Below are positions 27,172-48,840 of a stretch of 64,000 nt of DNA, one piece after another. The position numbers and the translations under genes were made by a program. Within the stretch, counting starts at the first letter, position 1. Each line of letters begins with the position of its first letter. The DNA is from Pseudomonadota bacterium (GTDB lineage: Bacteria > Pseudomonadota > Gammaproteobacteria > Steroidobacterales > Steroidobacteraceae). Below the pieces are notes generated by a model, which did no database searches, was not told the origin of the DNA, and worked only from the letters and a program-made list of their open reading frames with translations. Location of the stretch: the NCBI GenBank assembly GCA_023423065.1, contig JAFAGC010000130.1, forward strand, positions 60,118 through 124,117, given 5' to 3'.

Positions 27172-27260
27172 GAGATGTTCCAGATAGGTGCAATGGATGG
27201 GATGGGTAACTAGGCTCGAGTGCGTTGTTCCACGTTGTTCTTGACTCCCGCTACGAGCGG

Positions 27261-27280
27261 CGGTACAACGCGGTACAACG
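27261..27280. promoter_or_regulatory. tandem direct repeat CGGTACAACG x2 in a divergent intergenic region
   Basis: Two exact adjacent 10-mers lie 15 nt upstream of the ATG at 27295, between the divergent genes. Confidence 0.35.
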
Positions 27281-27294
27281 CATTCGAGGCCCCT

Positions 27295-32920: not shown

Positions 32921-33298
32921 TCAATCCACAAGTCCAATTAGGTCATCAATTTTTCGCAATTTCTTATTAGCGGCCAGGTAGGAAATTCCCCTGTGCAAAT
33001 GAAGACGGAACTGCTGGCTTAAGGACTCGGCATCACTCTCAAGCTTGTCGCGCACACAACGCTCTTTGAGTAAGGCCAAATAAATCTCGGAATACCTTCC
33101 AGCAAAGACCTTCCAGCTCATCTCGACATTGCTGTCGGCAGGCACCTTTGCCCGGGGCGGCACGCTCTTCTCTGCGAGAGAGACACAGAACGCCCACCGG
33201 CAGAGCGTGTTCCAGTGCTCAATGCCAGTGACTCGCTTGAGCTTGATCAGTTGATCCTTCGCCTGTTGCGAAAGCCGGATGTGGTCAATGGCGCTCAT
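32921..33298 (-). CDS. dndE: DNA sulfur modification protein DndE
   Basis: IRLSQQAKDQLIKLKRVTGIEHWNTLCRWAFCVSLAE is DndE-like. ATG 33298 overlaps the dndD stop (ATGA). Confidence 0.85.
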   Translation of the reverse strand: MSAIDHIRLSQQAKDQLIKLKRVTGIEHWNTLCRWAFCVSLAEKSVPPRAKVPADSNVEMSWKVFAGRYSEIYLALLKERCVRDKLESDAESLSQQFRLHLHRGISYLAANKKLRKIDDLIGLVD

Positions 33299-35286
33299 GC
33301 GGCTGCTCGCGTCTCGAAGTAGCCAGGTACAACTCGTGTGCAACCCTGCTTGTCGTCATACTCAAGCCGATATGTGCGGCCAATCCATGGATCAAGGCGG
33401 CGCAAGTATTCGCCCGAGATCTCTTCGTCTGTTGAGAGGAGGATCACTTGATGGCTCGCAAACGGAAAGTAGCGTTCGACTAGGTGGATGCGGTGATCCG
33501 TGTCGAGACGACCGAGCGGAGTATCTATTGCAGTTGGCAAGGGACGTCCGGATGCCTTAGCCAAGCCCCAAAGCAATGCAATCGCCAATAGCTGCCGCTC
33601 ACCAGCAGAGAGGCGCTCTGCAGTGAGGACCTTGTCGTCGCGACCAAACAGGGTGAGCGAGTACGTTTCTGCATCAATCGTAAGTCGGGTGACAAGAGAA
33701 GACTTCCTCAACAGCTGGCGATAGCTCTCAAGGACCAGCTGCTCAATTCGGCGTACATGCCGTGCCGTCACGGCACGACGAAAGGCACCCAAGGTTTCGC
33801 GGATCTTGCTCGAATGATGCAGGATGCGCGAGCGATCCTGTCGGTCGCCTTCCGCGCGAGCACCTTCTTCTAATAGCCGTGTGAGTGCCTGCCCTTTCCG
33901 TTCGATCTCGCGGAACACCCGTTCGATCTCGCTGCCAATAATGGCGTACTGCGACTCAAGCGCCGCGATCTCCAAGCGCAGCGCATCGCACTTCGAAGCT
34001 ATTTCTGCAACAGTGTCTGCACCTGGAATGCTGTCGAACTTGAGACGTAAACGTTCCGCGCGCACCGTCGCATCGCGCTGCTGCTTCACTTTGACAGCCG
34101 CCTCTTTTGATGTAGAGGCAAGTTCCTCGCGCAGCAAGGCATGCAGATCGGTTCGAGTTTCAGGCAGCAGATCCAGCACCGGCTGGTCTCCGCTCAAGGC
34201 TTCGCGCTTCTGCCTATCCTTCTCGAGAAACTTCTTCACGTCCTCGAGGGCGCCTTTGGTCAAACCTTGTTTGCGCAAGTGCTTGATCATCCCCTCGTCT
34301 CGCTCACGCAGCGTCTGAGCTACCTCACGCGCTTGACGAGCCTCTTCTTCAGACCGATCTCGAGCCGCGACGGCCTTCAATAGATCGCGAACGAGCAGCA
34401 ACGGAGCGGCACCAGCGGCTAGCTCACGAAGGGCCTCGGCACGCTGGGAAACTTCGTCGTCCGCTGCTTTGCGGTCGCGCTCAATCTCGGCTCGTTGCTC
34501 GTAAAGCTCACCGCCGAGCTTTCGGAATTGCTCTTCAAGCTTTGACAGCGTTTTCCGCTTCTGATCTATCTGATGTGTTCGCAACGAGGCGCGTTCCTCA
34601 GCGAGTTTTTCGGAACGGGTTCGCAGGTCCGTCAGTTCGTTCTCGGCGGCAGCGATTTCCGTCCGGGCGACATCATCGCGTTCTTGCGTGCGTTTGCGTC
34701 TCTCATAGACCTGCAGGTCTTTGTCGAGCTGATCAACAATGTCGAGCCCCAGTAGATTCTGGATCGCTGCGCCGATGAGAGAGGAAGAATTGGCGAAAGA
34801 GGCGTAGCTTTCGATCTGTTCACCGTCGAACAAGAACAGGTGTGCAATATTTGGCGGCATCAGGTCTTCGACCTGTGTGATCCAATTGTCCGCCAGTGCA
34901 GGTTCAAGTTGCCCATTGCGCCAAACTTCAAACTGCTCCTTGCAGCCGCTCTCGGTCACGCGCCAAGCGCGCCTCAACCGATAGTGATCCTCGTGCCCTT
35001 CCACGGTGTGCCTGAACGCAAGCTCGATCGAAGCGGCGCGATCTGTAGCGCTGCGATGAATACTTCTGCTCAGATACTCCGGATATCCGATCGATCCGCG
35101 GTTGGAGATCCGAGCGTGCGGACCATACAAGCAAAGCTGGAGCGCATCGAGAAGCGTTGTCTTACCACCGCCGTTCAGTCCACCGATCAGCACAACCGGC
35201 TTCGACGCCGACGGCGGGGTGAAGCAAAGCGTTTGTCGATCGGCATAGAGGCCAAAATTCTGTAACGTGATCTCGTCAAGAATCAT
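33295..35286 (-). CDS. dndD: DNA sulfur modification protein DndD (SMC-like ATPase)
   Basis: MILDEITLQNFGLY...GGLNGGGKTT Walker A, a long coiled-coil middle, LSAGERQLLAIALLW signature, and AIDTPLGRLD. Confidence 0.9.
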   Translation of the reverse strand: MILDEITLQNFGLYADRQTLCFTPPSASKPVVLIGGLNGGGKTTLLDALQLCLYGPHARISNRGSIGYPEYLSRSIHRSATDRAASIELAFRHTVEGHEDHYRLRRAWRVTESGCKEQFEVWRNGQLEPALADNWITQVEDLMPPNIAHLFLFDGEQIESYASFANSSSLIGAAIQNLLGLDIVDQLDKDLQVYERRKRTQERDDVARTEIAAAENELTDLRTRSEKLAEERASLRTHQIDQKRKTLSKLEEQFRKLGGELYEQRAEIERDRKAADDEVSQRAEALRELAAGAAPLLLVRDLLKAVAARDRSEEEARQAREVAQTLRERDEGMIKHLRKQGLTKGALEDVKKFLEKDRQKREALSGDQPVLDLLPETRTDLHALLREELASTSKEAAVKVKQQRDATVRAERLRLKFDSIPGADTVAEIASKCDALRLEIAALESQYAIIGSEIERVFREIERKGQALTRLLEEGARAEGDRQDRSRILHHSSKIRETLGAFRRAVTARHVRRIEQLVLESYRQLLRKSSLVTRLTIDAETYSLTLFGRDDKVLTAERLSAGERQLLAIALLWGLAKASGRPLPTAIDTPLGRLDTDHRIHLVERYFPFASHQVILLSTDEEISGEYLRRLDPWIGRTYRLEYDDKQGCTRVVPGYFETRAAA

Positions 35287-36833
35287 GCGGGTACTTCCAC
35301 TCTTCCTGGCAATTCATGGCTCTCCTGGGCGTTGGGGGGCGTCGGATCGAGAGCGCGCACGCGAGCATCACCTAACGCATCACGTCGCTCACGAGCACGT
35401 TCGACGGCATCATCCTCACTCGAATAGAAGCCTCGATGGAACGCTTGCTCCATCGCATCGAAGAGGCCTGCCCGGCGCAACATCGATTTGTACTGCTTTT
35501 CGATTGAAAGGAGCTCACGGGCGAGCTGAAAGTGAATCTCGTCAGTCCCGCAGATTTCACGTAACAGAGCTACCTCTGCTGCGCCCATGACGAGATTGTC
35601 GTCGATGCGACCGCCCGGATACTTTTCGCCGACCGCATCTTCGTAGATGCCTGGCAGCGTGTCCTCGATTTCATGTTTGTCGACGACCCAGATGCGGCGA
35701 ATCTCTTCGAGCTCAGCGATGGTGATGAGTTGCAGATCGCGAACCTCCGGCGGACCGTTCTCGCGAATATGCCGCTGCGCGCGCAGCACCTTCCGCAGCC
35801 AGGTGGCGCGTACCTCCTGCTTGTAGGGGCCGGGGATCGGCCGATCATTGAAGAGCTGTACGGCGCCGTTCATTCGCCTGAAATCGCGCAGCGGGCGATC
35901 GGCGTCCGGAGTCTTCGGCGGATCTAACTCATTACGGAGTTCTAGGAGCGGCAGCATCCACTCCTTCTCCTCGTCGTTCTGAATCATGGCTTGCATCGAC
36001 TTGTCCTTCTCGACAAGTGTGCACACCCAGCAGCCAAAGCGACTATCACCGCAACTCGGCGTACTAGTGTCGACGACCAGGGGACACTCGCCATCAGCGG
36101 AAGCCCCTTGATACATAGTCAACAAATCCTTGTTGTTAAAACCCCAGGGATTACGTACTTGCATCAAGAAGAGCCAAACATCATCGTTGCTCCAGTCCTC
36201 AAGCGGCGAATACACGAATGAGTTCGGGAGGCTGCCGTTGGGGCTCAACCGATCCCTGACTCGCTTGCGCTCAAACTGCTCCATTACCCGTGCGCGCGCC
36301 GCACTTTCGGCCTTGCGTGTCCCGAGTACGAGAATGGCCTCACCGTGCTTCTGCACGACCGAACTAATGAACTGAGTGGACGGCATGATCTTTAGGCGCT
36401 CAGTGCACCAGCGGAATTTGGGCCGCGGCGCGGGATATCCGCGTCCGATCAAGTTAACCCAGAACGTGTTTGTTGCTTCGGGTGTCAGCCGATGCGGGGT
36501 GATCGGCATATTCTGTTTGGCCGCCTCTGTACCGATTTTCTCCAGCGACTTTGATACCCAAAGCGCGACGATTGGGTTCTCGACCAAGGTGTCGGTACTA
36601 ATGACATAGACCGGCTTACGACGTTGCTCTGCAGGCACCTGCGAGAGGGCAAGCCAAATCAGTTGAAGCGCTGCTGTCGAGTCCTTACCTCCGCTGTATC
36701 CCACAACCCACGGGATATCATCGCTGGTGTAGAGCGCCGTCACCTCATTCATCAGGTGCGCGAGCGTCGACTTCATTCCATGCTCGGTGAATGCCGAGCC
36801 AGCGTTACCGTTCTTTTGATTCTTCTGAGCCAT
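35283..36833 (-). CDS. dndC: DNA phosphorothioation sulfurtransferase DndC (PP-loop ATPase)
   Basis: VVGYSGGKDS PP-loop and a Cys cluster (CGDSRFGCWVC). ATG 36833 is preceded by GAGGGGAAA. The maximal TTG ORF extends to 36893. Confidence 0.9.
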   Translation of the reverse strand: MAQKNQKNGNAGSAFTEHGMKSTLAHLMNEVTALYTSDDIPWVVGYSGGKDSTAALQLIWLALSQVPAEQRRKPVYVISTDTLVENPIVALWVSKSLEKIGTEAAKQNMPITPHRLTPEATNTFWVNLIGRGYPAPRPKFRWCTERLKIMPSTQFISSVVQKHGEAILVLGTRKAESAARARVMEQFERKRVRDRLSPNGSLPNSFVYSPLEDWSNDDVWLFLMQVRNPWGFNNKDLLTMYQGASADGECPLVVDTSTPSCGDSRFGCWVCTLVEKDKSMQAMIQNDEEKEWMLPLLELRNELDPPKTPDADRPLRDFRRMNGAVQLFNDRPIPGPYKQEVRATWLRKVLRAQRHIRENGPPEVRDLQLITIAELEEIRRIWVVDKHEIEDTLPGIYEDAVGEKYPGGRIDDNLVMGAAEVALLREICGTDEIHFQLARELLSIEKQYKSMLRRAGLFDAMEQAFHRGFYSSEDDAVERARERRDALGDARVRALDPTPPNAQESHELPGRVEVPA

Positions 36834-37917
36834 TTTCCCCTCGTCGGAATGCATCCTCGGTCCGCTGCTCCTCTGCCGAGAGCGCGAGCCCAAGATGATT
36901 CTTGATTGCGTTCGTTGTCAGGACCACATTCTGTTGCGACTTTGAAACGCGACCGCCCAGCAAGGCTCGGCCTTCCCACAAGCTGCTATTGCTTCGGCTC
37001 CAGTCCATTGACTGCAGGGCAGTAAGCTTCTTCGACCACTGCTTCGGATATTTTTGGATGAGAGCATTGCCCGCGCGCGCGAGAGCCTGAAGCACCACGC
37101 CATGCGTGTGAATGAAGTCCGTTCGAACCTCACCCGCCGTCATCTCGCCACGCCGAACGCGATCCCATTCGTTCATGTATTTCGCAACGGCTTCCCAAAA
37201 ATTCAAGGCAAGCTCGGCGCTCTCCTGCGGGTCCTCGAGCCCGAGTCCATCGAGCAGATCGCTGGTCGCATGATAGATGGCACTCAGTGTGAAAAGCCGG
37301 CGCGAGCGTGGCGAGAGCGCAGTCTTTTCCATTTCCACGACGTCGCGAAATACGGGCGATTTTGCGATCAATGACTTCGCCATTTCGGCGACGGTGTCGC
37401 GGTGGTCATAGAGGATGCCGAGGGAGGGCGAGGGCCGGATGGCATACCGATTGAGGTCGGCAAACATCTGCTGGCAGCGCTTGAGGCCGACGTCGAGGAA
37501 GAAGACTACTGCGATGCTTTCGTCGCCGAGTTCGGGCCGCTCGCGCAACGCCATCTCGATGGCTGCGCGGCGATGTTGACCATCATTGATGATAAATCGG
37601 GCCTGCATCGGAATACGAAGGAGCCCAATGCGACTCGCCTCACCTTCTTGGGCAAGCTGCTCAAACTGCACCGCGGCGTCGATCGAGGCAGTGATCGCGG
37701 AAAAGACATAGTTCTCGTTGTTGTCGATTACGTAACGTGACATCTCCGGGAGCCGCGCCCGATTGAGGTGGCGCTGCGCCCGCAACTCAGGCACCAGTTC
37801 CTCTTCGTTAAACAGGAACAGTTTCGGAAGCAGCCGCAACGGGCACATCGAGACGTAATATTCGCGACACGCCTGGACGCCCTTGATGGCTGGGAATACG
37901 TACTCGAAGCCGCTCAT
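36805..37917 (-). CDS. dndB: DNA sulfur modification protein DndB
   Basis: MSGFEYVFPAIKGVQACREYYVSMCPL opening, INDGQHRRAAIEMAL, and QQMFADLNRYAIRPS. Confidence 0.9.
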   Translation of the reverse strand: MSGFEYVFPAIKGVQACREYYVSMCPLRLLPKLFLFNEEELVPELRAQRHLNRARLPEMSRYVIDNNENYVFSAITASIDAAVQFEQLAQEGEASRIGLLRIPMQARFIINDGQHRRAAIEMALRERPELGDESIAVVFFLDVGLKRCQQMFADLNRYAIRPSPSLGILYDHRDTVAEMAKSLIAKSPVFRDVVEMEKTALSPRSRRLFTLSAIYHATSDLLDGLGLEDPQESAELALNFWEAVAKYMNEWDRVRRGEMTAGEVRTDFIHTHGVVLQALARAGNALIQKYPKQWSKKLTALQSMDWSRSNSSLWEGRALLGGRVSKSQQNVVLTTNAIKNHLGLALSAEEQRTEDAFRRGENGSEESKER

Positions 37918-37946
37918 GCGTCTTGAACTAAAGAGGGTTGTGCGAT

Positions 37947-37979
37947 ACAAACATAATGAGTGATGTGCGCAATGTTTGT
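37947..37979. promoter_or_regulatory. inverted repeat ACAAACAT-N17-ATGTTTGT in the dndA/dndB divergent region
   Basis: Perfect 8-bp arms at 37947-37954 and 37972-37979. The repeat lies just upstream of the preferred dndA start. Confidence 0.3.
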
Positions 37980-37985
37980 CAAACC

Positions 37986-39155
37986 ATGAACCAAACGTTT
38001 GTATCTCAACACACACAAGATGCAGCGGCTTACTTGGACTGCAACGCGACGACCCCTGTCGAGCCGGCAGTGCAGGCCCTTGTGGCACGGCACTTTGGCG
38101 AAGAGTTCGGCAACGCCGGCAGTCGAACACACGAATACGGCCTAAGGGCGAGCAAGACTGTGCAGCTGGCGCGCGAGCGCGTGGCGACAGTCGTTTCGGC
38201 GAAGGCTGAAGAGGTTATTTTCACCGCCGGCGCGACCGAAGCCAACAACCTGGCGATTCTCGGGCTCGCCGAGCATGGCGAAAAAACGGGCTGCCGGCAT
38301 ATCGTTTCTACGGCAATCGAACACAAGGCGGTCTTGGAGCCGCTTCAGGCCCTCAGCGCGCGCGGTTTCGATGTGACCTTGCTCCGGCCTAAAGAGAATG
38401 GGGCGGTAGATCCCACCGCCATAGCCGCGGCCCTAAAGCCCGAGACCCTATTGGTCTCGGTCATGCAGGCGAATAACGAAACCGGTATTCGCCAACCGAT
38501 CACGGAAATCGCCGCTGCGTTAGCTGGGCACGACGCCTACTTTCATGTCGACGCGGCGCAAGGTTTTGGCAAAGACCTTGAATCGTTGCGCTCGACGCGT
38601 ATCGATCTACTCAGCGTGAGCTCGCACAAGATTTTCGGACCCGTGGGGGTGGGGGCGCTCATTGCCCGACGACGTGGCTTTCGCAAGCCGCCGCTACAAC
38701 CGCTGATGTTTGGCGGCGGTCAGGAACGCGGTCTACGGCCAGGTACGCTTCCTGTGCCACTAATCGCAGGTTTTGGATTGGCTGCCGAGATGGCTGTTAC
38801 TCAAAACGCCCAACGGCGGTCGCGATGCGAGGCCATGCGTTTCGACGCGCTGGCCGCGCTACGCCCGCTCAACCTTTTCATGCATGGCAATCCCGACAAC
38901 GCCCTGCCGCACGTCCTCAACTTCTCCATCGATGGCCTCGACTCCGAGGCAATCATGGTCGCCCTGAAGGGCATCGCTGCCATCTCTAACGGCTCGGCCT
39001 GCACCTCGCAGAGCTACAAACCTAGCCATGTCCTGCAGGCGATGGGGCTGACTGACGCGCAAATCGCGGGCGCGGTACGGATCTCCTGGTGTCATCTAAC
39101 ACCTGACCCTGACTGGCATACCATCGCGGCGAGGCTCGCGCAGATTCAGCGTTGA
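37986..39155 (+). CDS. dndA: cysteine desulfurase DndA (IscS/NifS-like)
   Basis: YLDCNATTPVEP, SSHKIFGPVG (PLP lysine) and SNGSACTS (active-site Cys). Divergent from dndB, as in classical dnd loci. The start is uncertain, with alternatives at 37938 and 37956. Confidence 0.85.
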   Translation: MNQTFVSQHTQDAAAYLDCNATTPVEPAVQALVARHFGEEFGNAGSRTHEYGLRASKTVQLARERVATVVSAKAEEVIFTAGATEANNLAILGLAEHGEKTGCRHIVSTAIEHKAVLEPLQALSARGFDVTLLRPKENGAVDPTAIAAALKPETLLVSVMQANNETGIRQPITEIAAALAGHDAYFHVDAAQGFGKDLESLRSTRIDLLSVSSHKIFGPVGVGALIARRRGFRKPPLQPLMFGGGQERGLRPGTLPVPLIAGFGLAAEMAVTQNAQRRSRCEAMRFDALAALRPLNLFMHGNPDNALPHVLNFSIDGLDSEAIMVALKGIAAISNGSACTSQSYKPSHVLQAMGLTDAQIAGAVRISWCHLTPDPDWHTIAARLAQIQR

Positions 39156-39163
39156 GGGCAGCC

Positions 39164-40429
39164 TTAGGCTGCCGCATCCGCCTCCATCATCCGCAGGTAA
39201 TGCTCCGTCAGAGAGCCAATCTCCACGAGCGTTGGCTTCAGGAAGTTGGACTGGGTGATCATCGTCTCACCCTTGAGTTCCTTTAGCGCCTCAAGCAATG
39301 ACTGCAGCGTATTGAGTGGTGTCTGTCGAGCCTTCTGATGCAGATACTCCGCCTCGACGAGGCGCATCGGCTTCGTGGCCTTCTCAGGGTTGGATACGTC
39401 GAATTGCGAGGCGAACCCGGTACCGTTCTCCGAGTCGTACTTTGACATGTCATTCCACAAACGGATGTTCTCGGCCTTGTAAAAGACGTTTGGATTCTTG
39501 TCCTCATCTTTGCGAGGTTGCGAAAAGGCCCACTGAAAAAGCGCCTTCTCGGCCTCATCCGAGAGGTAGAGCCGGTCTTTAGTGAACGCGAACTGTTCCT
39601 GTGCGTACTTGTGCTGGAGGATGTTCTCGAAGAAGTACTGATCGCTATCTGAGAACTCCTCTCCCTCAGGCAATTGATCGTCGTAGTGTCGCTTGAAGTG
39701 GCTGAAGGCAGAGGCTGCCTGGATGTTGCGACGAGTCTTGGTCTCGCCGAGCGACACCATTGATGCCACGCGTGCGATCAAGTGTTGCTCGAGCCGAAGC
39801 GGCTCTTCATCGCCGTACTGGTCGCGAAACAGTCGCTCGTAGAGCGAGGTAATGTAGAGATTCGTCGCGTAGGGACCCCACTGACGCGCATGCGTGATGT
39901 GCCGAACACCCAGCAGCCGCGGCAGCTTCTCTTCCAATTCCGCAGCCGTGGCCGCGTTCACCGGATAAACCTGAAGCCTGTCGGTGTCATTGAAGATCGC
40001 TTCCAGGCGTTCGACATGAAGCTGTTGCTGCTTGATTTCCTCGGCGGGCATCTTGCTGCCCTTCGTGAACTTCGAGAGCTTCGCTTTCTCTCGCTCAAGA
40101 CGTGGTCCGCGAATGCTGCGCAGAACCGATACGCGCGTATTGCCCTCGACCACAATGTAGTGGCCTTTGCGATCGGGATGCTCCCACACAATGATCGGAT
40201 CGATCGGCACCCAGCCCTGGGCGATGATCGCATCTTCAAGATCGCCGGCCTGGTAGACCGTATAGACCTTCGTGGTCAGGTCTTTTTGCAGGTTCTCCTC
40301 GAAGATTTCTTCGGGATCTTCGTAACGCGTCGCGCGATCCGGCGCAATGCGTGGATTGTTAGGGTCGAGAAAGATCTTCGAAAAGGGGACGGTGATGGCC
40401 TTTCCCAGATCGCCAAATGATTTAATCAT
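39164..40429 (-). CDS. ParB/Srx-fold (ParB N-terminal-like) domain protein
   Basis: KIFLDPNNPRI ... IVWEHPDRKGHYIVVEGNTRVSVLR resembles the ParB-like nuclease/NTPase domain. Its ATG overlaps the helicase stop (GATGATTAA), which suggests translational coupling. Confidence 0.6.
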   Translation of the reverse strand: MIKSFGDLGKAITVPFSKIFLDPNNPRIAPDRATRYEDPEEIFEENLQKDLTTKVYTVYQAGDLEDAIIAQGWVPIDPIIVWEHPDRKGHYIVVEGNTRVSVLRSIRGPRLEREKAKLSKFTKGSKMPAEEIKQQQLHVERLEAIFNDTDRLQVYPVNAATAAELEEKLPRLLGVRHITHARQWGPYATNLYITSLYERLFRDQYGDEEPLRLEQHLIARVASMVSLGETKTRRNIQAASAFSHFKRHYDDQLPEGEEFSDSDQYFFENILQHKYAQEQFAFTKDRLYLSDEAEKALFQWAFSQPRKDEDKNPNVFYKAENIRLWNDMSKYDSENGTGFASQFDVSNPEKATKPMRLVEAEYLHQKARQTPLNTLQSLLEALKELKGETMITQSNFLKPTLVEIGSLTEHYLRMMEADAAA

Positions 40430-42872
40430 CGTTGTTCTCCTCAGCGTGTGCCGAAAGTTTCGAAAGATGAAGCACACGCACGGCGTAGTTGTGTTCACCC
40501 AAGAAGGCTGCGAGATTCAGGAATAGTCGAGTAGGAAGCTCACGCGCGTCACGGCTCGCGAGAAAGCGCGCCAACACTCCGAACTGCTCGGCCGGCGCGA
40601 CCATTTGCAGGTCGGTGGTCGCAGCCGTTGTACATCTATCCAACGCGAAAGCTTCCTCGCTCGATAGCAGCCAGCCTTCGTGGCCCCCGAGCGGCAAGGG
40701 AATCTTGACCGCGAGTACAAAGGGCGTTGCGTCGCTAAGGTAGCTAGCGACGAGTTCCTGTCGGTTATAGCAATCCGCCAGGAAGTTTTGCAGCGCCTCC
40801 GGCAGCAGCGGGCGGAAATGAAAGGTTACGTACCGAAGCCAGGTTGTGGGACCGTGACGCTTCGAGGGCCTCGACTCCTTGGCCATCTTGTTCGAACCGT
40901 AGATCTCCTCGCGGGCGAAGTACGACGCGGTGAGCACCTGCATGAGTTCCGCCCACGCACTACCGGGTGTCAGGTCCTTTGAGACGCCGAATCGCGCGCC
41001 TTCACGCGTCAGAAAGTCTGACGGATCTGAGAGGGTCGCGCCACGCTCGGAGAAAGAATTGAAGACACCGCGAAAGGCCACGCTGTTCTGCGGATACTCC
41101 AGGAAGGCACCCCATGTTGCCTGCTCATCAAATCGCTCTGGGGCACCGTAGTACGGCAGACCATAGAGAAGCAGCCGGCACTTGTCGTCTGAGCCAAGAG
41201 CGGCAACTCGGCCGGTGATGCGCTGGCGAGCCGCCCCACCGACGTTGTAGCGATCAAGCATGTTGGTGACCTTCTGCTTGAGGTCATCCAGGCTTGAGTA
41301 GTCGATATCAATCAGCTCGGGGCGCAGATAGTCGCTGATCTCCTGATACAGCCAGCGCTGCTCGAAGTAGTACGCAAGTTCATCACGACGCGCCTGAACG
41401 ACGTACGCCGCAGTCTTGGACGGTGAGTATCGAACGCAGCGTCCCGCCGCCTGCATCAATCGCACCAGACTCGAGGTCGGATATGTCAGCACCACGGTAT
41501 TGATGCTTGGATCGTCAAATCCTTCGAGCAACAGCTGCGCAGAAACCAGAATCGCGCGTGGCTTCTCCGCGAAGATGTCCAGGAAATCGTCGTTGTCGAT
41601 ATGAAGCGAGTTACCGCTGCCATGGATGAACCCGATATCGGACACATCTAGGGGATGCCCATCGGCTTGGGCGGTTGCGAGGGCTTCGAGCAGAGCATCG
41701 TGGAACTCCACGACGCGCTCGATGCGCGGCGCGAGAACCAGAACTTTCGTGAACTCTCCGCCGCAGCGATCGATGACGTAGTCCGCGAGATCTTGAACCT
41801 GAGATTCCGACCACTCGAAATCCTGAACAGGGAATGGCTCGAACTTGGGCATGACGATGCAGCCGCGTTCCTCGAGCTCTCGATACGTGATAGTGAATGC
41901 GACCTCGTCGATGCCGATCGGCAGCAGGTCTGCACGATTCGGCGTTGCGGTGAGAAAAAGCGCTGGAACGGGATAGGTCGCCTCAAAAATCGGTTGGTAG
42001 GTGGGCGCAGCGGCGTGGTGAGCTTCATCGACGACCACAAGTACAGGCGGCACAGCATCTTCGGCAAGAATAGTTGTCAGCTCACTTACCATGACAAAGC
42101 GAATCCGCTTGGCGAGCAGTGACGCCGCATCATCTGGCACCGCGCTGCGACTGGTGGATAACAACTTCTGAAGTTCTCGGTGCGCCTGAGTACGCAGGTT
42201 CTTGCGATGCGTGACCCAGTAAACGAGCCCTGCGGCGTTCGCTGACTTGGCCAGCATTTCCAGGACGATGCGAAGCGCCGTGCGCGTCTTTCCAGCACCG
42301 GTGGGAAGGATCAGTCCAACCTTCGAGTGTGGTCGTTGGCGAAACGCATCGAGGCAATGCGAGACAGCGACGTCTTGGTAGCTCCAGTCTGGCGTCGTGC
42401 CGCGAGAGCGACCCGCAGTCTCCGGCTTAAGCGCCACCGCAACGGCACCGCCGATCGTCGTCGCGGCGGGCTCCGTTGAGAGAACGTGACGAAGGACGGC
42501 CGGAGGTAATCCCAACCGCCTGATGAGGTCCTCGCGTGGAAGCCGACGGTCGTCTTGCAAGTGGCGAACCTCTGCTCGAAGTTCTACCAAGCGCTTTTCC
42601 GAGCGCTGCCGCCAACCCGAGTCGGAGACTGTATAGGTGGCAACCGCCGCCTCAACGAGCCCGATGGTTGCGTCATTCACACCGCGGGAAACGTCGTCCG
42701 ACAACAAGGCATGAAGACGATTCGGATGAATGACCTCCCCATCACGCTTATCGAGCGCCAAGTTCAATGTCTTGCAGAGGGCCGCGGTGTTGCGCTCGGC
42801 GAGAAAGAGCGGAACAAGCTGCCCGTCGACGAGCTCACGGATGCGGGGGTCATGAATGCTGATACGGGCCAT
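40422..42872 (-). CDS. SF2 (DEAH / type III restriction Res-like) helicase, dnd-adjacent
   Basis: Motif I ILPTGAGKT, motif II VVVDEAHH, motif III LTATPNR, motif VI QAAGRCVRY. About 160 aa at the N-terminus and about 330 aa at the C-terminus are unassigned. Confidence 0.8.
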   Translation of the reverse strand: MARISIHDPRIRELVDGQLVPLFLAERNTAALCKTLNLALDKRDGEVIHPNRLHALLSDDVSRGVNDATIGLVEAAVATYTVSDSGWRQRSEKRLVELRAEVRHLQDDRRLPREDLIRRLGLPPAVLRHVLSTEPAATTIGGAVAVALKPETAGRSRGTTPDWSYQDVAVSHCLDAFRQRPHSKVGLILPTGAGKTRTALRIVLEMLAKSANAAGLVYWVTHRKNLRTQAHRELQKLLSTSRSAVPDDAASLLAKRIRFVMVSELTTILAEDAVPPVLVVVDEAHHAAAPTYQPIFEATYPVPALFLTATPNRADLLPIGIDEVAFTITYRELEERGCIVMPKFEPFPVQDFEWSESQVQDLADYVIDRCGGEFTKVLVLAPRIERVVEFHDALLEALATAQADGHPLDVSDIGFIHGSGNSLHIDNDDFLDIFAEKPRAILVSAQLLLEGFDDPSINTVVLTYPTSSLVRLMQAAGRCVRYSPSKTAAYVVQARRDELAYYFEQRWLYQEISDYLRPELIDIDYSSLDDLKQKVTNMLDRYNVGGAARQRITGRVAALGSDDKCRLLLYGLPYYGAPERFDEQATWGAFLEYPQNSVAFRGVFNSFSERGATLSDPSDFLTREGARFGVSKDLTPGSAWAELMQVLTASYFAREEIYGSNKMAKESRPSKRHGPTTWLRYVTFHFRPLLPEALQNFLADCYNRQELVASYLSDATPFVLAVKIPLPLGGHEGWLLSSEEAFALDRCTTAATTDLQMVAPAEQFGVLARFLASRDARELPTRLFLNLAAFLGEHNYAVRVLHLSKLSAHAEENNDD

Positions 42873-42932
42873 TTTTCTTGGTAACCAACGTCTATACGCG
42901 AAGGGGCCGAAGTGGCTGAAAATGATATTCCG

Positions 42933-42967
42933 TAATTATGGAATTGCAAGCTCGTGAATCCATAATT
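42933..42967. promoter_or_regulatory. inverted repeat AATTATGGA...TCCATAATT in an AT-rich divergent promoter region
   Basis: TAATTATGGAATT (42933-42945) faces GAATCCATAATTTT (42957-42970). It lies between the helicase operon and the methyltransferase gene. Confidence 0.35.
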
Positions 42968-43140: not shown

Positions 43141-45804
43141 TTGAATGGCGAAGCACAACGCGCCCCCGCGCCAGACACATCGGCAAGACTCGGTAAGCAG
43201 GTTGCCGACAGGTGCTACGTCCACGTCAGCGGCATTGACGAGCTCGATGAGATATCGCGCGACCTGGCGAGTGAAGGCATCCGAATTTCGGGGCTCACGC
43301 CTGGGCACGATTTCAACGTCGTTCGAGTGCGGCCTTCTTGCGGTGAAGTCGCCCTCCTCGACTATGCTCAGTTCTTCGTCGAGGCGTTCCCAGCATTGGC
43401 CCGCAGCTGGCGAGTACATATTCCAACGGAGACCGTTCGTCTCCGCGACTACTCCGCGTCTCTCAATCCGCCGATCCTGCATCGTAAAGAGCTGTTGCTG
43501 ACCGCGACGCATCCTGACCGCGCGCAATTCGCCGCACTCACCGCCTCTGCCGAATCGTTGGGGTTATTCGATGACCCGCATCGCATTGGTTTCAAGGCGC
43601 AGTGGCACGAGATCCTGCAACGCCGTGGATACATGGTGTTGGACCACGCATTGCTTCCTATCGGAAATGCCGAGCCTTCGGCAGATGACACCGAGATCGT
43701 TGAGCTCCGCCAGATCCAGCGCCACCTTACGGCGCTATCGCGCACCTCTCTTTCGGCGCCGATTCAGAGCTTGTTGCGCGACGATCTCCTGAAACCGGGC
43801 ACCACATTCTTTGACTACGGATGCGGAAAAGGCGATGACCTTCGAGGACTCGAGGCGCTGAGCATTTCAGGCAGCGGTTGGGACCCGTATCACCATCCGA
43901 CTGGTATTCGCGTGGAGGCGGATGTCATCAACCTCGGATTCGTAATTAACGTGATCGAAGACTTCGATGAACGCGTCGAAGCGCTCCTCGGTGCCTTCAA
44001 GTTGTGTCGTCAAGTCCTGGCGGTTTCTGCGATGTTGGAGGGGGCCGGGAAACCCGGTCGGCCGTTTCGCGATGGGCTACTTACGGGACGCAACACGTTC
44101 CAGAAGTATTTCACTCAAAGCCAACTCCAGCAGTTCATCGAGGCGGTGTTGGACGAGGAAGCGATTCCAGCGGCCCCGGGTGTCTTCTATGTGTTTCGAG
44201 ACCGACTCTTTGAGCAACGCTTCCTCGTTCATCGTCAGAGCAGCCGACTCCGCCGCCACCGCGCTCTGCCTAACCGCTCAACAATCGTTGCGCCGAACCA
44301 ATGGACAGAGCCGACGCCGCATCGCGTGCAACGCCGGGAAGCGCACACAGCAACGCCTCAGGATGAGGTCAGACCTCCACGTCTAAGACATGCCCGTTCG
44401 CCACCCGCGATCGATCAAGCCAAGCAAGAATGTGCATTGCAGTTGTGGAATCGCTGTATCGAGCTTGGGCGGAGCCCAGAGCCTGATGAAGTGGAAGGGC
44501 TTCCGGAAGTCGAGGCCCAATTCAGCTCTTTAGGCAAGGCAGTGAGGTATTGCCTCAAGAACTTCGATCGAGACGCGCTCGATAGATCAGGTCATGCACG
44601 ACGTGACGAGATACTGGTGATCTTGGCAATCGCGCGTTTCTCCAAGCGTCGTCGCTTCCACGACTTCGAAACGCGCCTTCAACGCGACATCAAAGCTTTC
44701 TTTGGATCATTGGCGAACGCCGAACGCGACGCACAGGCGCTGCTGTTTTCCGTAGGTGATCCTCTTGTACTTAGCGCGGCATGTTCGGATGCCGCGACAC
44801 ACGGGTTAGGCTACCTGGAGGAAGGCCAATCTCTTCAACTTCACACCTCCTTGGTGGAGCGGCTCTCGCCTGTGCTTCGGGTGTATATCGCTTGTGCAAC
44901 AGCACTCTTTGGCGACGTAAGAAATGTGGACTTGGTGAAGCTGCACATCAGTTCTGGAAAAGTAACGTTGATGCGCTTCGATGACTTCGTGAACAAGCCG
45001 CTCCCCGCAATGACCGAGCGAATCAAGGTAAAGCTCAAAGAGCAGGACATGGACATCTTCCGATACGGAGGTGATTTTCCGGAGCCCCTGCTCTACGAAA
45101 AGTCGCGCTTCATAAATGAGGAGTTCCCAAACTACGCCGAGCAAATCGCATTCGAAGAGAATCTTGCCCAACTCGCGCTAGTCGACGTCTCCGGGTACGG
45201 CCCCTCTGCAAGAGTTATCAACACCGCGCTTAGAACTGCTCGTTGGGAGATTGATGGTTTTGAGCTGCGACGAAGCCGCACATTGCCTGGTCTCGAAGAA
45301 AGATGCAGCCGATACTTCACGTATCGCGAACTCATCGAAGTAGGCGATACGTGGTCAAACACGAGGACCCCGAATGTCCCAGCGTCACCGGATACCTTCA
45401 ACGCGATCGGGGATCTTGCCCGACTGGTGCTTGATCCCGTCGTGGAGTATTTCGGCAAGATCGAAATCACATACGGCTTCTGCTCGGCAACGCTGGCGCG
45501 GCAGATCAAGCGCGGCATAGATCCGAAACTCGATCAGCACGCATCATATGAGCTCAATACGCGGGGCAAGCGCATCTGCGATCGCGGGGGGGCCGCCGTT
45601 GATTTCATTGTTCAAGACGAAAACATGCTGGAGGTCGCTCAATGGATCGCCACGAATACACCCTTCGATCGCCTTTACTACTACGGACAGTCTCGACCGC
45701 TTCATGTGAGTTTCGGCCCTGATGCACGCCGCGAGTTGATTGAAATCGAGGAGATTAATGGACGAAGAATGCCGCGAAGGTGGCGCCACTCATCGGCGAA
45801 CTAA
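43141..45804 (+). CDS. dnd-associated putative SAM methyltransferase fused to a C-terminal M15 (Zn DD-peptidase/Hedgehog-fold)-like domain
   Basis: NPPILHRKELLL and FFDYGCGKGDDLRGL (motif I). The C-terminal KIEITYGFCS...LDQHASYE...GGAAVDFIV...PLHVSF matches the order of the H/D/H metal ligands in M15A. The TTG at 43141 has AAGGAAG upstream. The maximal ORF (GTG) starts at 43042. Confidence 0.65.
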   Translation: MNGEAQRAPAPDTSARLGKQVADRCYVHVSGIDELDEISRDLASEGIRISGLTPGHDFNVVRVRPSCGEVALLDYAQFFVEAFPALARSWRVHIPTETVRLRDYSASLNPPILHRKELLLTATHPDRAQFAALTASAESLGLFDDPHRIGFKAQWHEILQRRGYMVLDHALLPIGNAEPSADDTEIVELRQIQRHLTALSRTSLSAPIQSLLRDDLLKPGTTFFDYGCGKGDDLRGLEALSISGSGWDPYHHPTGIRVEADVINLGFVINVIEDFDERVEALLGAFKLCRQVLAVSAMLEGAGKPGRPFRDGLLTGRNTFQKYFTQSQLQQFIEAVLDEEAIPAAPGVFYVFRDRLFEQRFLVHRQSSRLRRHRALPNRSTIVAPNQWTEPTPHRVQRREAHTATPQDEVRPPRLRHARSPPAIDQAKQECALQLWNRCIELGRSPEPDEVEGLPEVEAQFSSLGKAVRYCLKNFDRDALDRSGHARRDEILVILAIARFSKRRRFHDFETRLQRDIKAFFGSLANAERDAQALLFSVGDPLVLSAACSDAATHGLGYLEEGQSLQLHTSLVERLSPVLRVYIACATALFGDVRNVDLVKLHISSGKVTLMRFDDFVNKPLPAMTERIKVKLKEQDMDIFRYGGDFPEPLLYEKSRFINEEFPNYAEQIAFEENLAQLALVDVSGYGPSARVINTALRTARWEIDGFELRRSRTLPGLEERCSRYFTYRELIEVGDTWSNTRTPNVPASPDTFNAIGDLARLVLDPVVEYFGKIEITYGFCSATLARQIKRGIDPKLDQHASYELNTRGKRICDRGGAAVDFIVQDENMLEVAQWIATNTPFDRLYYYGQSRPLHVSFGPDARRELIEIEEINGRRMPRRWRHSSAN

Positions 45805-45854: not shown

Positions 45855-46868
45855 CTATCGCACGCGAGGAGGTTTCTCCCGAGAGCTGTCGGAAAGCCCG
45901 GTAGCGATCCACTCCCGATCCGTTTGTGGTTCTGACATGCGCTCGATGAACTTCAAGACTTCGTCAGCTAGCTGGCGATGCCCGCCTTCTACCAACCGAT
46001 CTGTCGTTGCGCGCCATCCGTGTTTGACGTTCTCGCGAGTCGTGAGCAAAGCACTTTTACCCTGCTCAATGCGAATATTGCCGCGCGACAGTTCGGCGGC
46101 GACTGACTCGACCCGCTCTCGCACGTGGCTTGAGGCCCCTCGCAGGCTGGCTCGAAAGATTCCGTCCTTCGCCGATTTTCTGTCTTGTCCACGAACTGCA
46201 CGCTCGGTAGCGTTCGCCGGCACACCGAGTTGCCGCAAATTCTTCGCGAACTCGGACCGCCAATGCCGCAGTTTTGCTTTTCTAATATTCAGACGCACAC
46301 CTTGCTCGTTCATCGCTTTCAGCACTAGGTGAACGTGCGGATGGTCTTCGTCTGTATGCAGGACGAACGCGTATCGGTGCTGCCCCCAGAACTCTTCCCG
46401 CGCCAGGTTACGAACGGCAGTGAGCACTTTGTCCGGCGGCGTTCCGGCAGGCATCGAAAACATCAGCTTATGAACCAACTTCGCTGGAGTTCTTCCTTGC
46501 GTCCCAGCGAGCGCGGTTTGGCGCCGAGCATCGTCGATATCCAGATCCCATTCCTCTAAGAGTGCCATTCCCCTTTCATCTTGGAGTCCAAGTCCGGAAT
46601 CAGTTTCTAACTCGAGCCCTCCGTATCGACTGATGTAGTCGAGATGGTTTGCTGCGGCCTTCAGGTCGTTGCTCGCTCGCGGAAGTACCTTCACCATCAC
46701 TTCGGGCGTGCGCTTTACTGTCCGGCGAATCTGCTCTACCTGTTCATGTGTTAGACGACCACCGTTTTCACGCGGCCCACCACGACCGTAGGACACGATG
46801 TCGAACAGTGCTTCGCCTCCGCTTGGAACCCTAAACTTGGGCATGGCCAACGCTCCAGCTTGTGACAT
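45855..46868 (-). CDS. relaxase/mobilisation nuclease (VirD2/MOBP-like)
   Basis: The histidine triad region FVLHTDEDHPHVHLVLKA and the N-terminal region preceding it are relaxase-like. An alternative start lies at 46844. Confidence 0.8.
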   Translation of the reverse strand: MSQAGALAMPKFRVPSGGEALFDIVSYGRGGPRENGGRLTHEQVEQIRRTVKRTPEVMVKVLPRASNDLKAAANHLDYISRYGGLELETDSGLGLQDERGMALLEEWDLDIDDARRQTALAGTQGRTPAKLVHKLMFSMPAGTPPDKVLTAVRNLAREEFWGQHRYAFVLHTDEDHPHVHLVLKAMNEQGVRLNIRKAKLRHWRSEFAKNLRQLGVPANATERAVRGQDRKSAKDGIFRASLRGASSHVRERVESVAAELSRGNIRIEQGKSALLTTRENVKHGWRATTDRLVEGGHRQLADEVLKFIERMSEPQTDREWIATGLSDSSREKPPRVR

Positions 46869-47376
46869 TGGCCTTCAGAAGCTCCCTAGTGCTCTCACGT
46901 AGCGCTTCGCAGATCTTGAGCATCGCCCGCAACTCTTCACGCACCGAGCTAGGCAATCTGCCACCCTCGTTTGCGACCTTGGCGATCTGATTGATGTTCC
47001 GCCCGATGGAAGCGAGCTCTGCGATGCTTCGCTTTAGCGCCAGCAGCTCGCCCTTCGGCAATGGCGATTGCGAGCGTAGGTGGGCGCGCACAAGGACGGA
47101 GACATAGGTCGCCGCTGGCAATGCCCGGGCAGCCGCGCGCTCACGCAATAGCCTTTCATCCTCCGCTTGCAGGCGAACGGTTAAGCGTACTGGTCGCTTG
47201 GCGTTTTCTCCCGGCAAGTCCACAGCGCGCTCCGGACCATCGGCACCTCGGAGCATGACTCCGAGCAGCTGTTTGAGGAGCGCTGATTCAGTCTTGTTCT
47301 CGCGATGCGCGAGTGTCCGAAAGGCCTCCTTCATCTCCGGTGAGACTTGAACTGCGATAAGTGCGCGCGATGACAT
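46831..47376 (-). CDS. mobC: MobC-family relaxosome accessory protein (RHH)
   Basis: LASIGRNINQIAKVAN (compare MobC RIGNNLNQIAR), plus two RHH-like segments. Confidence 0.75.
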   Translation of the reverse strand: MSSRALIAVQVSPEMKEAFRTLAHRENKTESALLKQLLGVMLRGADGPERAVDLPGENAKRPVRLTVRLQAEDERLLRERAAARALPAATYVSVLVRAHLRSQSPLPKGELLALKRSIAELASIGRNINQIAKVANEGGRLPSSVREELRAMLKICEALRESTRELLKANVTSWSVGHAQV

Positions 47377-47841: not shown

Positions 47842-48666
47842 CTACCCTACCAGCGCCTCCCGGGCCATATCCCAGAGCGCTCCATTGAGCTTCACGTCCT
47901 GGCGGATCGAAGTGATTCGACGTGTGCGCGTCAGCCTTCCGGTTGCAGACCGCCGGCTCAATCCACCGGTAAGCAGGTTTTCCTGGACCCGATTGAGCAC
48001 GCTCCAGAGGTCATCGCCAGCATCGTCTGGTCGCCGGCAAGTCAGCAGCTGCGACGGCTGCATGCCGCTCTCCACTGGCACCGGGAATCGCAACGCGAGG
48101 GCGCGCTCCGCGAAAGCGATCTGTTCATCCAAGAACATGGCCCGCTCCTCCATGCGTTCGACCTGGCGCGCGAGGCCTTCGAACTGCTCGCAGATCTTGA
48201 GCGCGCCAGTGACGACCTCGTCAACCACATCGCCGCGGTGTGAGACGCAGTACGCCGGAAACGCACCGTGAGAGACGATGAGTCCATTGGTGCAGACGAC
48301 TCGATACAGGCCCATCCTCAGTTGATAGGCGCTGGTGCCATCGTGACTGTTCAGAAAGACGATCTCCGGAATCGAGTCCTTGAGCTGAACCGTCTCGAAC
48401 CGCCGGCGCAGCCGAAGCGCATGGCGTGCATGCTGCGGACTGGTCGTGCGCGTTTGCGCCTGGCGGACGTCCATCGGCACAAAGCCAGCGCTCATGAGAC
48501 CTGACAGCACGCGCTCGGTAGGAATGAAGGTGTACTTGGAACTTGTGCGCTCATGCGCGCCGCTGGCGAACACAGCCGGTGCGCGTTCGCGTAAGGCATC
48601 GAGCGTCAGCGGCTGAGTGAACGCACTGGCGCGCGACGAGAATGACGTATCTGACATCGTATTCAT
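47842..48666 (-). CDS. DUF932-family protein (typical of ICEs and plasmids)
   Basis: LTLDALRERAPAVFASGAHERTSSKYTFIPTERVLSGLMSAGFVP is the typical DUF932 opening. The start was taken at MNTMSD (48666). The upstream part of the listed ORF is the translated repeat. Confidence 0.75.
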   Translation of the reverse strand: MNTMSDTSFSSRASAFTQPLTLDALRERAPAVFASGAHERTSSKYTFIPTERVLSGLMSAGFVPMDVRQAQTRTTSPQHARHALRLRRRFETVQLKDSIPEIVFLNSHDGTSAYQLRMGLYRVVCTNGLIVSHGAFPAYCVSHRGDVVDEVVTGALKICEQFEGLARQVERMEERAMFLDEQIAFAERALALRFPVPVESGMQPSQLLTCRRPDDAGDDLWSVLNRVQENLLTGGLSRRSATGRLTRTRRITSIRQDVKLNGALWDMAREALVG

Positions 48667-48685
48667 GGATTGATCCTCGAGAAGC

Positions 48686-48840
48686 TTCTTGGGCGGGATT
48701 GCCCAGAGCCCCCGGATCACGGCGCGCGCAGCGGTCAAGGATCGAAGACCGCCGCAGGCGGCGAGTGCGTCCGCACTCGTCCTTGACGGCGAGCACGTCG
48801 TGATAGGCTGCAATCGAATCAGACAATCCCGCCCTCTTCC
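48686..48840 (-). repeat. structured 5'-leader repeat, copy 1 (ssDNA-promoter-like / radC-motif-like)
   Basis: Nested complementary segments: 48691-48700/48825-48834, 48716-48721/48799-48804 and 48734-48741/48780-48787, plus two inner hairpins. Two more copies lie at 49364 and 50724. Confidence 0.75.

Follow-up and report, generated by a model that had tools for sequence, protein, structure and literature searches.

What function is served by a helicase gene that overlaps a ParB-fold gene beside a phosphorothioate-modification cluster? The question was raised by a stretch of 64,000 nucleotides (nt), referred to as the window, from a member of the Steroidobacteraceae (Gammaproteobacteria; GenBank assembly GCA_023423065.1, contig JAFAGC010000130.1, positions 60,118 to 124,117 of the forward strand). 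The two genes, hereafter the pair, encode a superfamily 2 (SF2) helicase/translocase of 816 amino acids (aa) and a 421-aa ParB-like protein. From the sequence alone, the original prediction had proposed a restriction module that senses phosphorothioate. Based on the sequence comparisons, structural models and analogies set out below, the pair is probably a portable cassette whose effector role is tied to DNA modification, here the restriction-like arm of DndABCDE phosphorothioation. This reading was preferred because the linkage to modification genes survives rearrangement, because the pair co-varies with the Dnd proteins and because its partner switches between clades. It is further favoured because dndBCDE together with a host iscS is treated as functional without the pair, because ParB-superfamily sensors are known and because the helicase core appears to be of the restriction-translocase type.

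Both genes lie on the minus strand. According to the open reading frame (ORF) table and translations, the helicase gene occupies positions 40422-42872, and the ParB-like gene, read from the ATG at 40429, occupies 39164-40429. The two share 8 nt at 40422-40429 (ATGATTAA, minus strand), where the TAA stop codon of the helicase gene and the ATG of the ParB-like gene overlap within the junction sequence GAGGAGAACAACGATGATTAA; a GAGGAG ribosome-binding site stands 7 nt 5' of that ATG. Because of this overlap with GAGGAG upstream, translational coupling of the ParB-like gene to the helicase gene is indicated. A longer ParB-like ORF of 444 aa from an upstream GTG was rejected, since the alignments with homologues begin at M1 of the 421-aa protein. 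At E ≤ 0.001, 402 homologues were found for the ParB-like protein and 539 for the helicase, and among the matches listed almost all homologues of both were near full length. With homologues so numerous and so complete, both ORFs are judged from sequence to be real genes rather than chance ORFs. The ORF sizes, coordinates and 8-nt overlap of the original prediction, along with the helicase core motifs, were confirmed by the ORF table, the sequence and an alignment of 33 homologues, as was the placing of a translationally coupled operon beside dndA.

The phosphorothioate-modification cluster next to the pair was found to be intact. The cysteine desulfurase gene dndA (37956-39155, plus strand; 399 aa from the start chosen by the gene caller) matched TIGR03235 with 497.5 bits against a cut-off of 480. 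The remaining genes, all on the minus strand and together spanning 32921-37920, were dndB (36805-37920; TIGR03233, 529 bits), dndC (35283-36893; TIGR03183, 682 bits), dndD (33295-35286; TIGR03185, 605 bits) and dndE (32921-33343; TIGR03184, 131 bits), and all five exceeded the NCBIfam cut-offs. The pair and dndA are convergent, as predicted, but the gap between them, given as 9 nt, is 8 nt (dndA stop at 39155, ParB-like stop codon at 39164-39166).

Loci containing a ParB-like family member were collected from one-genome-per-species contigs, metagenome contigs and identity look-ups, giving 71 non-redundant loci (L numbers below) in five or more phyla. Their hosts were Alpha- and Betaproteobacteria, Acidobacteriota, Myxococcota and probably Bacteroidota, with one locus on a Ti plasmid. 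The helicase gene was directly adjacent in 53 of the 54 assessable loci, upstream in 52 and downstream in 1. The only exception was L003, where the ParB-like gene stands as an orphan within an integrase/RadC island and its neighbours carried no informative domains save RadC and integrases. Among 19 related loci, the junction was an overlap of 1, 4, 8 or 26 nt in 13 and a gap of 10-31 nt in 6.

Linkage to modification genes was assessed in the 38 well-flanked loci, defined as having 7 kb or more of sequence to either side. In 35 of these, dndB/C/D/E were present within 10 kb, in one dpd genes were present, and in two there were neither. Modification genes therefore accompanied 36 of the 38, usually 0-4 kb from the pair. 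Co-occurrence with dnd had been set beforehand as a test of the original prediction, and these counts, with the adjacency of the helicase gene, bear it out. The gene order and orientation varied. The pair is convergent with dndA in the window, in Palleronia and in Acidobacterium capsulatum ATCC 51196, and it abuts dndE in Bordetella, Burkholderia stagnalis and the Agrobacterium larrymoorei Ti plasmid. Elsewhere it follows dndE on the same strand, or lies 3-8 kb from dnd across small nuclease genes or insertion sequence (IS) copies. The linkage to dnd persists despite these differences, and the minimal loci L029 and L030 consist of the pair and dndEDCB alone, without any nuclease gene. A separate observation was made in L010 (11900-19700, Rhizobacter sp. 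UKL202a chromosome), where three tandem IS66-like units of about 2.4 kb stand between the pair and dndE.

For the helicase and the ParB-like protein, pairwise identities were correlated with each other (rho 0.89, Mantel p = 0.0005), and those of each protein were correlated with DndB-E (rho 0.62-0.81, Mantel p ≤ 0.0035). Values of 0.58 for DndCD-DndFGH and 0.107 for DndCD-PbeAC have been reported by Xiong et al. (PMC6459918). By their measure, the co-variation of the pair with Dnd was at least that of DndCD-DndFGH and far over that of DndCD-PbeAC.

A family that travels on islands could also be an independent two-gene defence system, standing beside dnd or dpd through island clustering and acting regardless of modification. 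Several observations suit this: the dnd region of the window is the cargo of a conjugative element with other defence-like genes, unrelated small nucleases and DGQHR paralogues occur in many loci, relatives of the ParB N-domain are found in other defence contexts without dnd, and two well-flanked loci lack a modification cluster. Yet modification genes accompany the other 36 across five or more phyla and varied gene orders, the copies divide into a dnd clade and a dpd clade (below), the pair co-varies with Dnd, and the minimal loci hold nothing except the pair and dnd. Because the same partner is picked so consistently, chance clustering on islands is not expected, and an independent system is considered unlikely.

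The deepest clade of the family adjoins dpd genes rather than dnd. In L063 (267-13687) the gene order was UvrD-like helicase, ParB-like gene, helicase, which reverses the order of the pair. Beside it were dpdA (544 bits, cut-off 200), dpdB (422 bits, cut-off 300), folE2, queE and queC, a set of genes that inserts 7-deazaguanine (preQ0) into DNA (PMC10164549). Both L063 proteins are full length with all motifs kept, and are 43% (helicase) and 45% (ParB-like) identical to those of the window. Models for DpdD-K gave zero matches among the L063 proteins. In L066 (1-3755), a dpdB fragment and a dpdA fusion lie directly upstream of the ParB-like gene, and in L075 queC adjoins it. The dnd-linked and Dpd-linked copies fall in separate clades, that is, the partner tracks phylogeny. 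A homologue from Pontibacter rugosus JCM 31319 (L018) also grouped with the Dpd-linked clade; its contig is short and the gene context lies beyond the contig ends.

Because this sister clade adjoins dpdA/dpdB and preQ0 genes, the cassette appears to be linked to DNA modification in general and not necessarily to phosphorothioate, and the sensing of phosphorothioate named in the original prediction proved too specific. The switch of partner between Dnd and the chemically unrelated Dpd fits a reader or effector role over a role in sulfur chemistry, which it argues against. Both systems include a DGQHR ParB-superfamily protein, DndB or DpdB.

The ParB-like protein is composed of an N-terminal ParB/Srx-type domain (residues ~8-160), predicted to bind nucleoside triphosphates (NTP), and an all-helical region (186-420). 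In the AlphaFold2 model (predicted local distance difference test score, pLDDT, 85) a helical-hairpin insert of ~50 residues (97-148) lies inside the N-terminal domain. A Foldseek search of the model against the PDB returned ParB, Noc, KorB and sulfiredoxin on top, with probabilities of 0.94-1.0 for ParB/Noc/KorB. The probability was 1.0 for 7bm8 (ParB), 7ol9 (Noc), 8qa9 (KorB) and 7nfu over 245-327 aligned columns, and the template-modelling score normalised to the target reached 0.58 for the ParB/Noc/KorB matches. The match to cytidine triphosphate (CTP)-bound ParB/Noc/KorB spans the N-domain and the helical region, the latter aligning with the DNA-binding part of these proteins, and the match to sulfiredoxin covers the N-domain alone. 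Against BFVD, Spo0J/ParB-type matches were obtained with E down to 8e-8. The PADLOC models PD-Lambda-5_A and PDC-M38A matched residues 11-130 at about E = 1e-11 (best 1.7e-11, for PD-Lambda-5_A), and one phage relative carries the RefSeq label "ParB N-terminal domain-containing protein". The ParB/Srx fold named in the original prediction thus stands on the Foldseek, PADLOC and RefSeq evidence.

The motifs DPNNPR (residues 22-27) and VVEGNTR (93-99) were invariant in 30 homologues. We take DPNNPR and the GxxR motif to sit at ParB boxes I and II, with GNTR in place of GERR. The EGNTR segment (E95-R99) follows the pattern acidic, G, amide, any, R, which is also that of DGQQR in DndI. Compared with the ParB/KorB/Noc clamps, which were its best structural matches and in which an NTP-binding N-domain is likewise followed by a helical DNA-binding region, the protein differs in its 50-residue hairpin insert, in having GNTR for GERR, in its helicase partner and in the lack of a parA/parS context.

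Sequence models assigned little else. Pfam gave nothing for the protein at E ≤ 5 and nothing in 30 family members at E ≤ 1; ParB_N (PF02195), HTH_ParB and DndB were accordingly rejected with zero matches, and DUF262 was likewise unmatched. Paralogy with DndB/DGQHR proteins was also rejected, as there was no match to TIGR03187, TIGR03233 or Pfam DndB. A search of PDB sequences with the family profile gave chance-level C-type lectin matches only. The C-terminal 235 residues, all helical, had no Pfam or PDB sequence match, and neither HNH nor DUF1524 was found in them. The PGAP label of one homologue is "hypothetical protein". A sister family of ~370-400 aa has the N-domain in common, and the 10 members tested matched PDC-M38A with E down to 5e-28. 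Beside portal gene Q in a P2-like phage (L031, NC_049457.1 5009-7106) lies the gene of a 372-aa protein that carries this N-domain too; its partner is a 330-aa protein, not a helicase. From its length and the common N-domain, we infer that this phage protein belongs to the PDC-M38A-matching sister family.

The ParB fold, the conjugative element in the window and the homologous locus on a Ti plasmid would also suit a role in partitioning or replicating the mobile element, in which the ParB-like protein would bind a centromere and the helicase would serve replication or conjugation. However, parA is not adjacent, the pair follows dnd/dpd and not replication or transfer genes, and identity with the NCBIfam RepB partition protein was rejected at 16 bits against 201.5. 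Moreover, L027 has a separate, bona fide ParB_N+HTH_ParB protein. A partition function is therefore regarded as extremely improbable.

In the AlphaFold2 model of the helicase (pLDDT 79.6), an N-terminal helical domain (residues 1-~135) leads through a disordered linker to the RecA1/RecA2 core (~161-505), behind which lies a C-terminal domain (~505-816). Pfam ResIII (66 bits), DEAD and Helicase_C were matched within residues 164-482. Motifs I (PTGAGKT, 190-196), II (DEAHH, 282-286), III (TATPNR, 308-313) and VI (QAAGRCVR, 474-481) were invariant in 33 homologues. With Foldseek, the top matches were RadD, EcoR124I HsdR, SauUSI and LlaBIII, aligned over the core only, and a PDB profile search gave SauUSI (7clg, E = 5e-19) and RadD (E = 4e-17). 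By sequence profile and model, the core is closest to RadD and to the motors with which ATP-dependent restriction enzymes (HsdR, type ISP, SauUSI) translocate double-stranded DNA. The full-length fold search was dominated by the helicase core, the end domains being covered only within the full-length query.

The N-terminal domain (42393-42872, minus strand), with helices at residues 9-131 of the model, carries a conserved HPNRLHALLSDD motif. It may include a helix-turn-helix, based on a weak match to HTH_24 (E = 0.05, residues 103-127). Natural 655-aa variants, which start at residue 161 of the window protein, lack it. The C-terminal alpha/beta domain of ~310 aa (40425-41360, minus strand; defined by AlphaFold2 and comparisons) is family-specific and was kept in every variant seen, including the 655-aa and Dpd-linked forms. 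It gave zero Pfam matches at E ≤ 10 and zero matches in the PDB profile search, and a sequence search with this domain alone returned 15 proteins, each either belonging to this helicase family or being a fragment of such a protein. Compared by hhalign with the Mrr_cat nucleases encoded nearby, it scored a probability of 0.6%, and PD-(D/E)xK, HNH, GIY-YIG and HKD patterns were not found among its invariant residues.

Known helicase families were considered and rejected in turn. The original prediction had pointed to a dnd-linked helicase family in TIGRFAMs. Such a family does exist, TIGR04095 (dnd_restrict_1), a dnd-dependent ResIII subfamily derived by partial phylogenetic profiling (PMC3226654). 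The window helicase resembles it in being a ResIII-type helicase encoded beside dnd genes but belongs to another family, scoring 29.3 bits against a cut-off of 600 with only residues 187-236, around motif I, aligned; the L063 homologue scored 30.2 bits. Identity with type I HsdR was rejected (TIGR00348, 24 bits against 284.55; EcoAI R, 34.5 bits against 550). Type III Res was rejected as only the generic ResIII domain was matched, with no Mod gene and no C-terminal nuclease match. HsdM, HsdS and Mod genes were not present near the pair, and the expectation that the helicase is not an ordinary type I or III subunit was upheld. PbeA was rejected as there was no Pfam match to PLD and the PADLOC PbeA models covered core residues 183-314 only, DpdE at 14.5 bits against a cut-off of 500, and Cas3 with a score far under its cut-off over the core only.

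RadD was both the best structural match (Foldseek E = 5e-13) and the best NCBIfam match, and a RadD-like helicase with a DNA-binding partner could form a repair or maintenance module for damage or replication trouble arising from modified DNA. The NCBIfam score, however, was 50 bits against 720 over the core only, on which RadD identity was rejected, and the RadD-specific C-terminal parts were unmatched. A distribution on mobile elements beside defence-type nucleases is also unlike that of a repair factor, and such a module is held to be very improbable.

With both proteins described, a role as an accessory or regulator of modification can be weighed, in which a KorB-like clamp would repress or target the dnd operon and the helicase would aid scanning or opening of DNA by DndCDE or DpdAB. 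KorB, a CTP-dependent clamp and repressor, is among the structural neighbours of the ParB-like protein, the ParB-superfamily proteins DndB (PMC12704722) and DpdB (PMC10164549) act in modification pathways, and the pair itself was without a detectable nuclease. Most dnd clusters in the literature nevertheless lack the pair. In a study in Escherichia coli, dndBCDE with the chromosomal iscS is regarded as modification machinery that works in its absence, phage defence being gained only after DndI is added (PMC11662687). Furthermore, dndB is present in nearly every locus, meaning that a regulator is already there, Dnd and Dpd have no common chemistry that would need one helicase helper, and the core resembles restriction translocases. 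An accessory role is thus thought quite unlikely, and the effector reading is retained.

If the pair is an effector, a nuclease might be supplied from outside. A small nuclease gene directly follows the ParB-like gene in many loci. In seven betaproteobacterial loci this is a same-strand HARE-HTH+Mrr_cat gene of ~270 aa (among them L005:11289-12116, L008:8714-9541, L011:11427-12269, L016:11296-12111, L019:8716-9528 and L028:13733-14560), which may supply a nuclease to the pair or may form a separate type IV-like module. The HARE-HTH+Mrr_cat gene is itself followed in L005 and L028 by one for a GHKL-type ATPase (HATPase_c_3, 574 aa). The nuclease following the ParB-like gene is of the HNH type in L006 and L021 and of the GIY-YIG type in L009. 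All three types agree with the variable nucleases that the 2024 reappraisal (PMC10853773) lists around Dnd genes.

Beside the observed gene structure, fold assignments, motif conservation, dnd/dpd linkage and co-variation, we infer each of the following biochemical steps and their dependence on modification. The ParB-like subunit would bind DNA via its helical ParB/KorB-like region. Its NTP pocket (DPNNPR and E95-G-N-T-R99) would serve as a switch whose state is set by the host mark on DNA, as proposed from the ParB-superfamily DUF262 domains of SspE and DndI, which work in this way. The subunit would then recruit or license the SF2 motor, which would translocate on unmarked DNA. The outcome could be a block to replication, delivery of a nearby nuclease (Mrr_cat, HNH or GIY-YIG) or cleavage by the C-terminal domain. 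A more specific version can be put forward tentatively, in which an NTP-gated clamp of the ParB/KorB type reads the mark and licenses an SF2 translocase that has no built-in nuclease, the same chassis having been re-tuned for phosphorothioate and 7-deazaguanine. This version would act by replication block or by handing DNA to interchangeable nearby nucleases, and it would make the cassette a new class of epigenetic reader and effector.

Several observations weigh against an effector coupled to modification. No nuclease domain was found in the helicase or the ParB-like protein by Pfam, PDB profile, hhalign or motif reading. Cleavage, as one sense of the restriction originally predicted, is consequently only a candidate mechanism of harm. 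Two well-flanked loci (L003, and L051 with an IS66-type transposase downstream of the pair) have no modification cluster within 10 kb, and the Dpd-linked clade comprises one complete and two partial loci. The co-variation may come partly from common host phylogeny or whole-island inheritance, the identities being given without a housekeeping-gene control. The closest structural match of the helicase, as noted, is a repair protein, and the ParB-like protein shows no sequence relation to DndB (hhalign probability 0.1%). Finally, the analogy with SspE and DndI is one of common fold and motif pattern only, since there is no DUF262 match and these proteins are absent among the best 50 Foldseek matches.

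SspE and DndI, from the Ssp and Dnd systems, are phosphorothioate-sensing effectors that fuse a ParB-superfamily DUF262 NTPase with a DUF1524/HNH nuclease. The NTPase of DndI is regulated by phosphorothioate-modified DNA, and its D83GQQR87 motif is essential, R87A abolishing both ATPase activity and defence (PMC11662687). Like the pair, they adjoin phosphorothioate-modification genes and have a ParB-superfamily NTP-binding domain with the acidic-G-amide-x-R motif (DGQQR in DndI, EGNTR in the ParB-like protein). The pair differs in having no match to DUF262 or DUF1524/HNH, no nuclease domain, and in that its motor is a separate SF2 helicase; among the best 50 Foldseek matches, the neighbours of the ParB-like protein were ParB, KorB and Noc and not SspE, DndI or GmrSD.

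PbeABCD is a further module linked to dnd that has a ResIII/SF2 motor at its centre and is found with other modification systems too (PMC6459918, PMC10853773), and PADLOC PbeA models matched the helicase core at E = 1e-11. PbeA, however, combines an HKD/PLD nuclease with an SF2 helicase, whereas the window helicase has no PLD/HKD and its partner is ParB-like. PbeB (a small protein), PbeC (a CxC ABC ATPase) and PbeD (DndE-like) were not present beside the pair in the window or related loci, where the only ABC ATPase was DndD and the only DndE-type gene dndE. Linkage to dnd is also much tighter for the pair, at 35 of 38 loci, than for PbeAC, where 42% has been reported.

The helicase core is closest by profile and structure to the ATP-dependent restriction translocases HsdR, LlaBIII/LlaGI and SauUSI but is without PD-(D/E)xK, PLD or SRA-like domains and without methylase or specificity subunits. 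In L063 and L066, the pair occupies the position of a restriction module beside dpdA/dpdB and preQ0 genes, as DpdD-DpdK would. Dpd restriction uses several helicases (PMC10164549), yet the match of the window helicase to DpdE was faint. PD-lambda-5 and PDC-M38 have the ParB N-domain subtype of residues 11-130 in common with the ParB-like protein. PD-lambda-5 is a validated E. coli prophage defence whose top HHsearch label was methyltransferase and which its authors read as a compacted restriction-modification and abortive infection system (PMC9519451). Judging from the model lengths, PD-lambda-5_A would join a ParB N-domain to a methyltransferase. The rest of the ParB-like protein was unmatched and had no methyltransferase domain and no match to the B subunit. 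PD-lambda-5 is not paired with a helicase, nor is the pair accompanied by a PD-lambda-5_B-like partner.

The components are therefore members of known superfamilies, and effectors paired with modification are known (DndFGH, PbeABCD, DndI, SspE, SspFGH). Two observations appear to be new, namely that a helicase partners a ParB/KorB-like protein and that the cassette associates with both Dnd and Dpd. The cassette was not found in PADLOC, NCBIfam or Pfam, or in the article text searched for the pairing, PDC-M38 and TIGR04095/TIGR04096, which included the 2024 reappraisal (PMC10853773), with supplementary datasets outside the search. Two expectations of the original prediction agree with this: that the pair is uncharacterised (it has no PADLOC system or NCBIfam name, and the ParB-like protein no Pfam model) and that its pairing is undescribed.

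In the same reappraisal, DndFGH was counted in 806 of 3416 taxa with a nuclease in the Dnd modification neighbourhood (PMC10853773). Most dnd clusters are without DndFGH, and the pair is a concrete candidate for the reader of the phosphorothioate mark in such genomes. Minimal loci of the pair and dndBCDE are available in cultured strains, namely Burkholderia stagnalis (LOZS01000068, L029), Agrobacterium larrymoorei (pTiAF3.44, L030) and Acidobacterium capsulatum ATCC 51196. A single reader chassis adapted to both modifications is suggested by the Dpd-linked clade and would allow a comparison of how mark specificity is encoded. If the reading is correct, the ParB NTP-switch fold would gain a role alongside a helicase, one that was not found described in the literature searched.

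Homologues of DndFGH, PbeA, SspE and DndI were not found among the window ORFs scanned. For DndF/G/H-type matches, the scan covered the pair (PADLOC, NCBIfam) and 23 of the 32 window ORFs of at least 330 aa, the other nine lying outside the element or overlapping scanned genes.

Two non-coding features flank the pair. A perfect 7-bp hairpin, GGCAGCC-TTA-GGCTGCC, was read from the sequence at 39157-39173, spanning the gap where the stop codons of dndA and of the ParB-like gene converge. It overlaps the ParB-like stop codon, has no T-run, and could be a shared (bidirectional) terminator of the two genes; the terminator scan reported none between them. On the other side, a promoter-like site (TTGCAA, 16-nt spacer, TATCAT; 42922-42949, minus strand) lies ~50 nt 5' of the helicase ATG, within the 268-nt divergent intergenic region common to the helicase gene and a TIGR04096 gene. 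It is weak evidence for a promoter, since it occurred once in 4.4 kb with 1.4 occurrences expected in shuffled sequence.

The TIGR04096 gene ("phosphorothioation-associated putative methyltransferase", 887-920 aa; 43141-45804, plus strand; 541 bits against 150) is divergent from the helicase gene and is an optional third neighbour of the pair. Among the first 28 related loci, 7 had homologues, as did 6 metagenome loci, beside dndE or the pair, and in L021 and L026 the gene lies directly upstream of the helicase gene on the same strand. The window protein has a DYGCGKGDD motif of the S-adenosylmethionine-binding type and, compared with core-only homologues of 440-480 aa, ~220 N-terminal and ~175 C-terminal extra residues. 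Directly after dndE lies a gene for a ChaC-like gamma-glutamylcyclotransferase (32336-32890, minus strand; Pfam ChaC, 92 bits), which could bear on cysteine/glutathione supply for sulfur insertion; no homologue of at least half its length was seen in the first 28 related loci checked.

Further along, two genes whose stop and start overlap by 1 nt form a unit (30218-31974, minus strand), encoding a 168-aa GIY...YVG protein and then a 416-aa DGQHR/DndB-like paralogue. The GIY-YIG-like protein had no significant Pfam match. The same unit recurs beside the pair in L004 and L016, analogous HNH and DndB-like units occur in L006, L008, L011 and L027, and the unit looks like a second dnd-satellite module.

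The region from ~24.4 kb to the window end (24433-64000) is an integrative conjugative element of which the dnd region is cargo. No tRNA gene was found in the window. At one end is an Arm-DNA-binding integrase that an IS240-type DDE domain either interrupts or is fused to (24433-25515). On the far side of the pair lie genes for a MobP-type relaxase (45855-46868), MobC/NikA (46831-47376), DUF932 (47842-48813), the antirestriction protein PF03230 (48934-49347), LPD7 (54009-55238), the TraG/VirD4 coupling protein (55235-57250), TrbI (58210-59475) and TrbL (61196-62341). At the element edge (25864-29559), a 499-aa ORF with no Pfam match and a 779-aa P-loop protein (GTTGAGKT) were observed, and a homologue of the latter is encoded upstream of the pair in L006.

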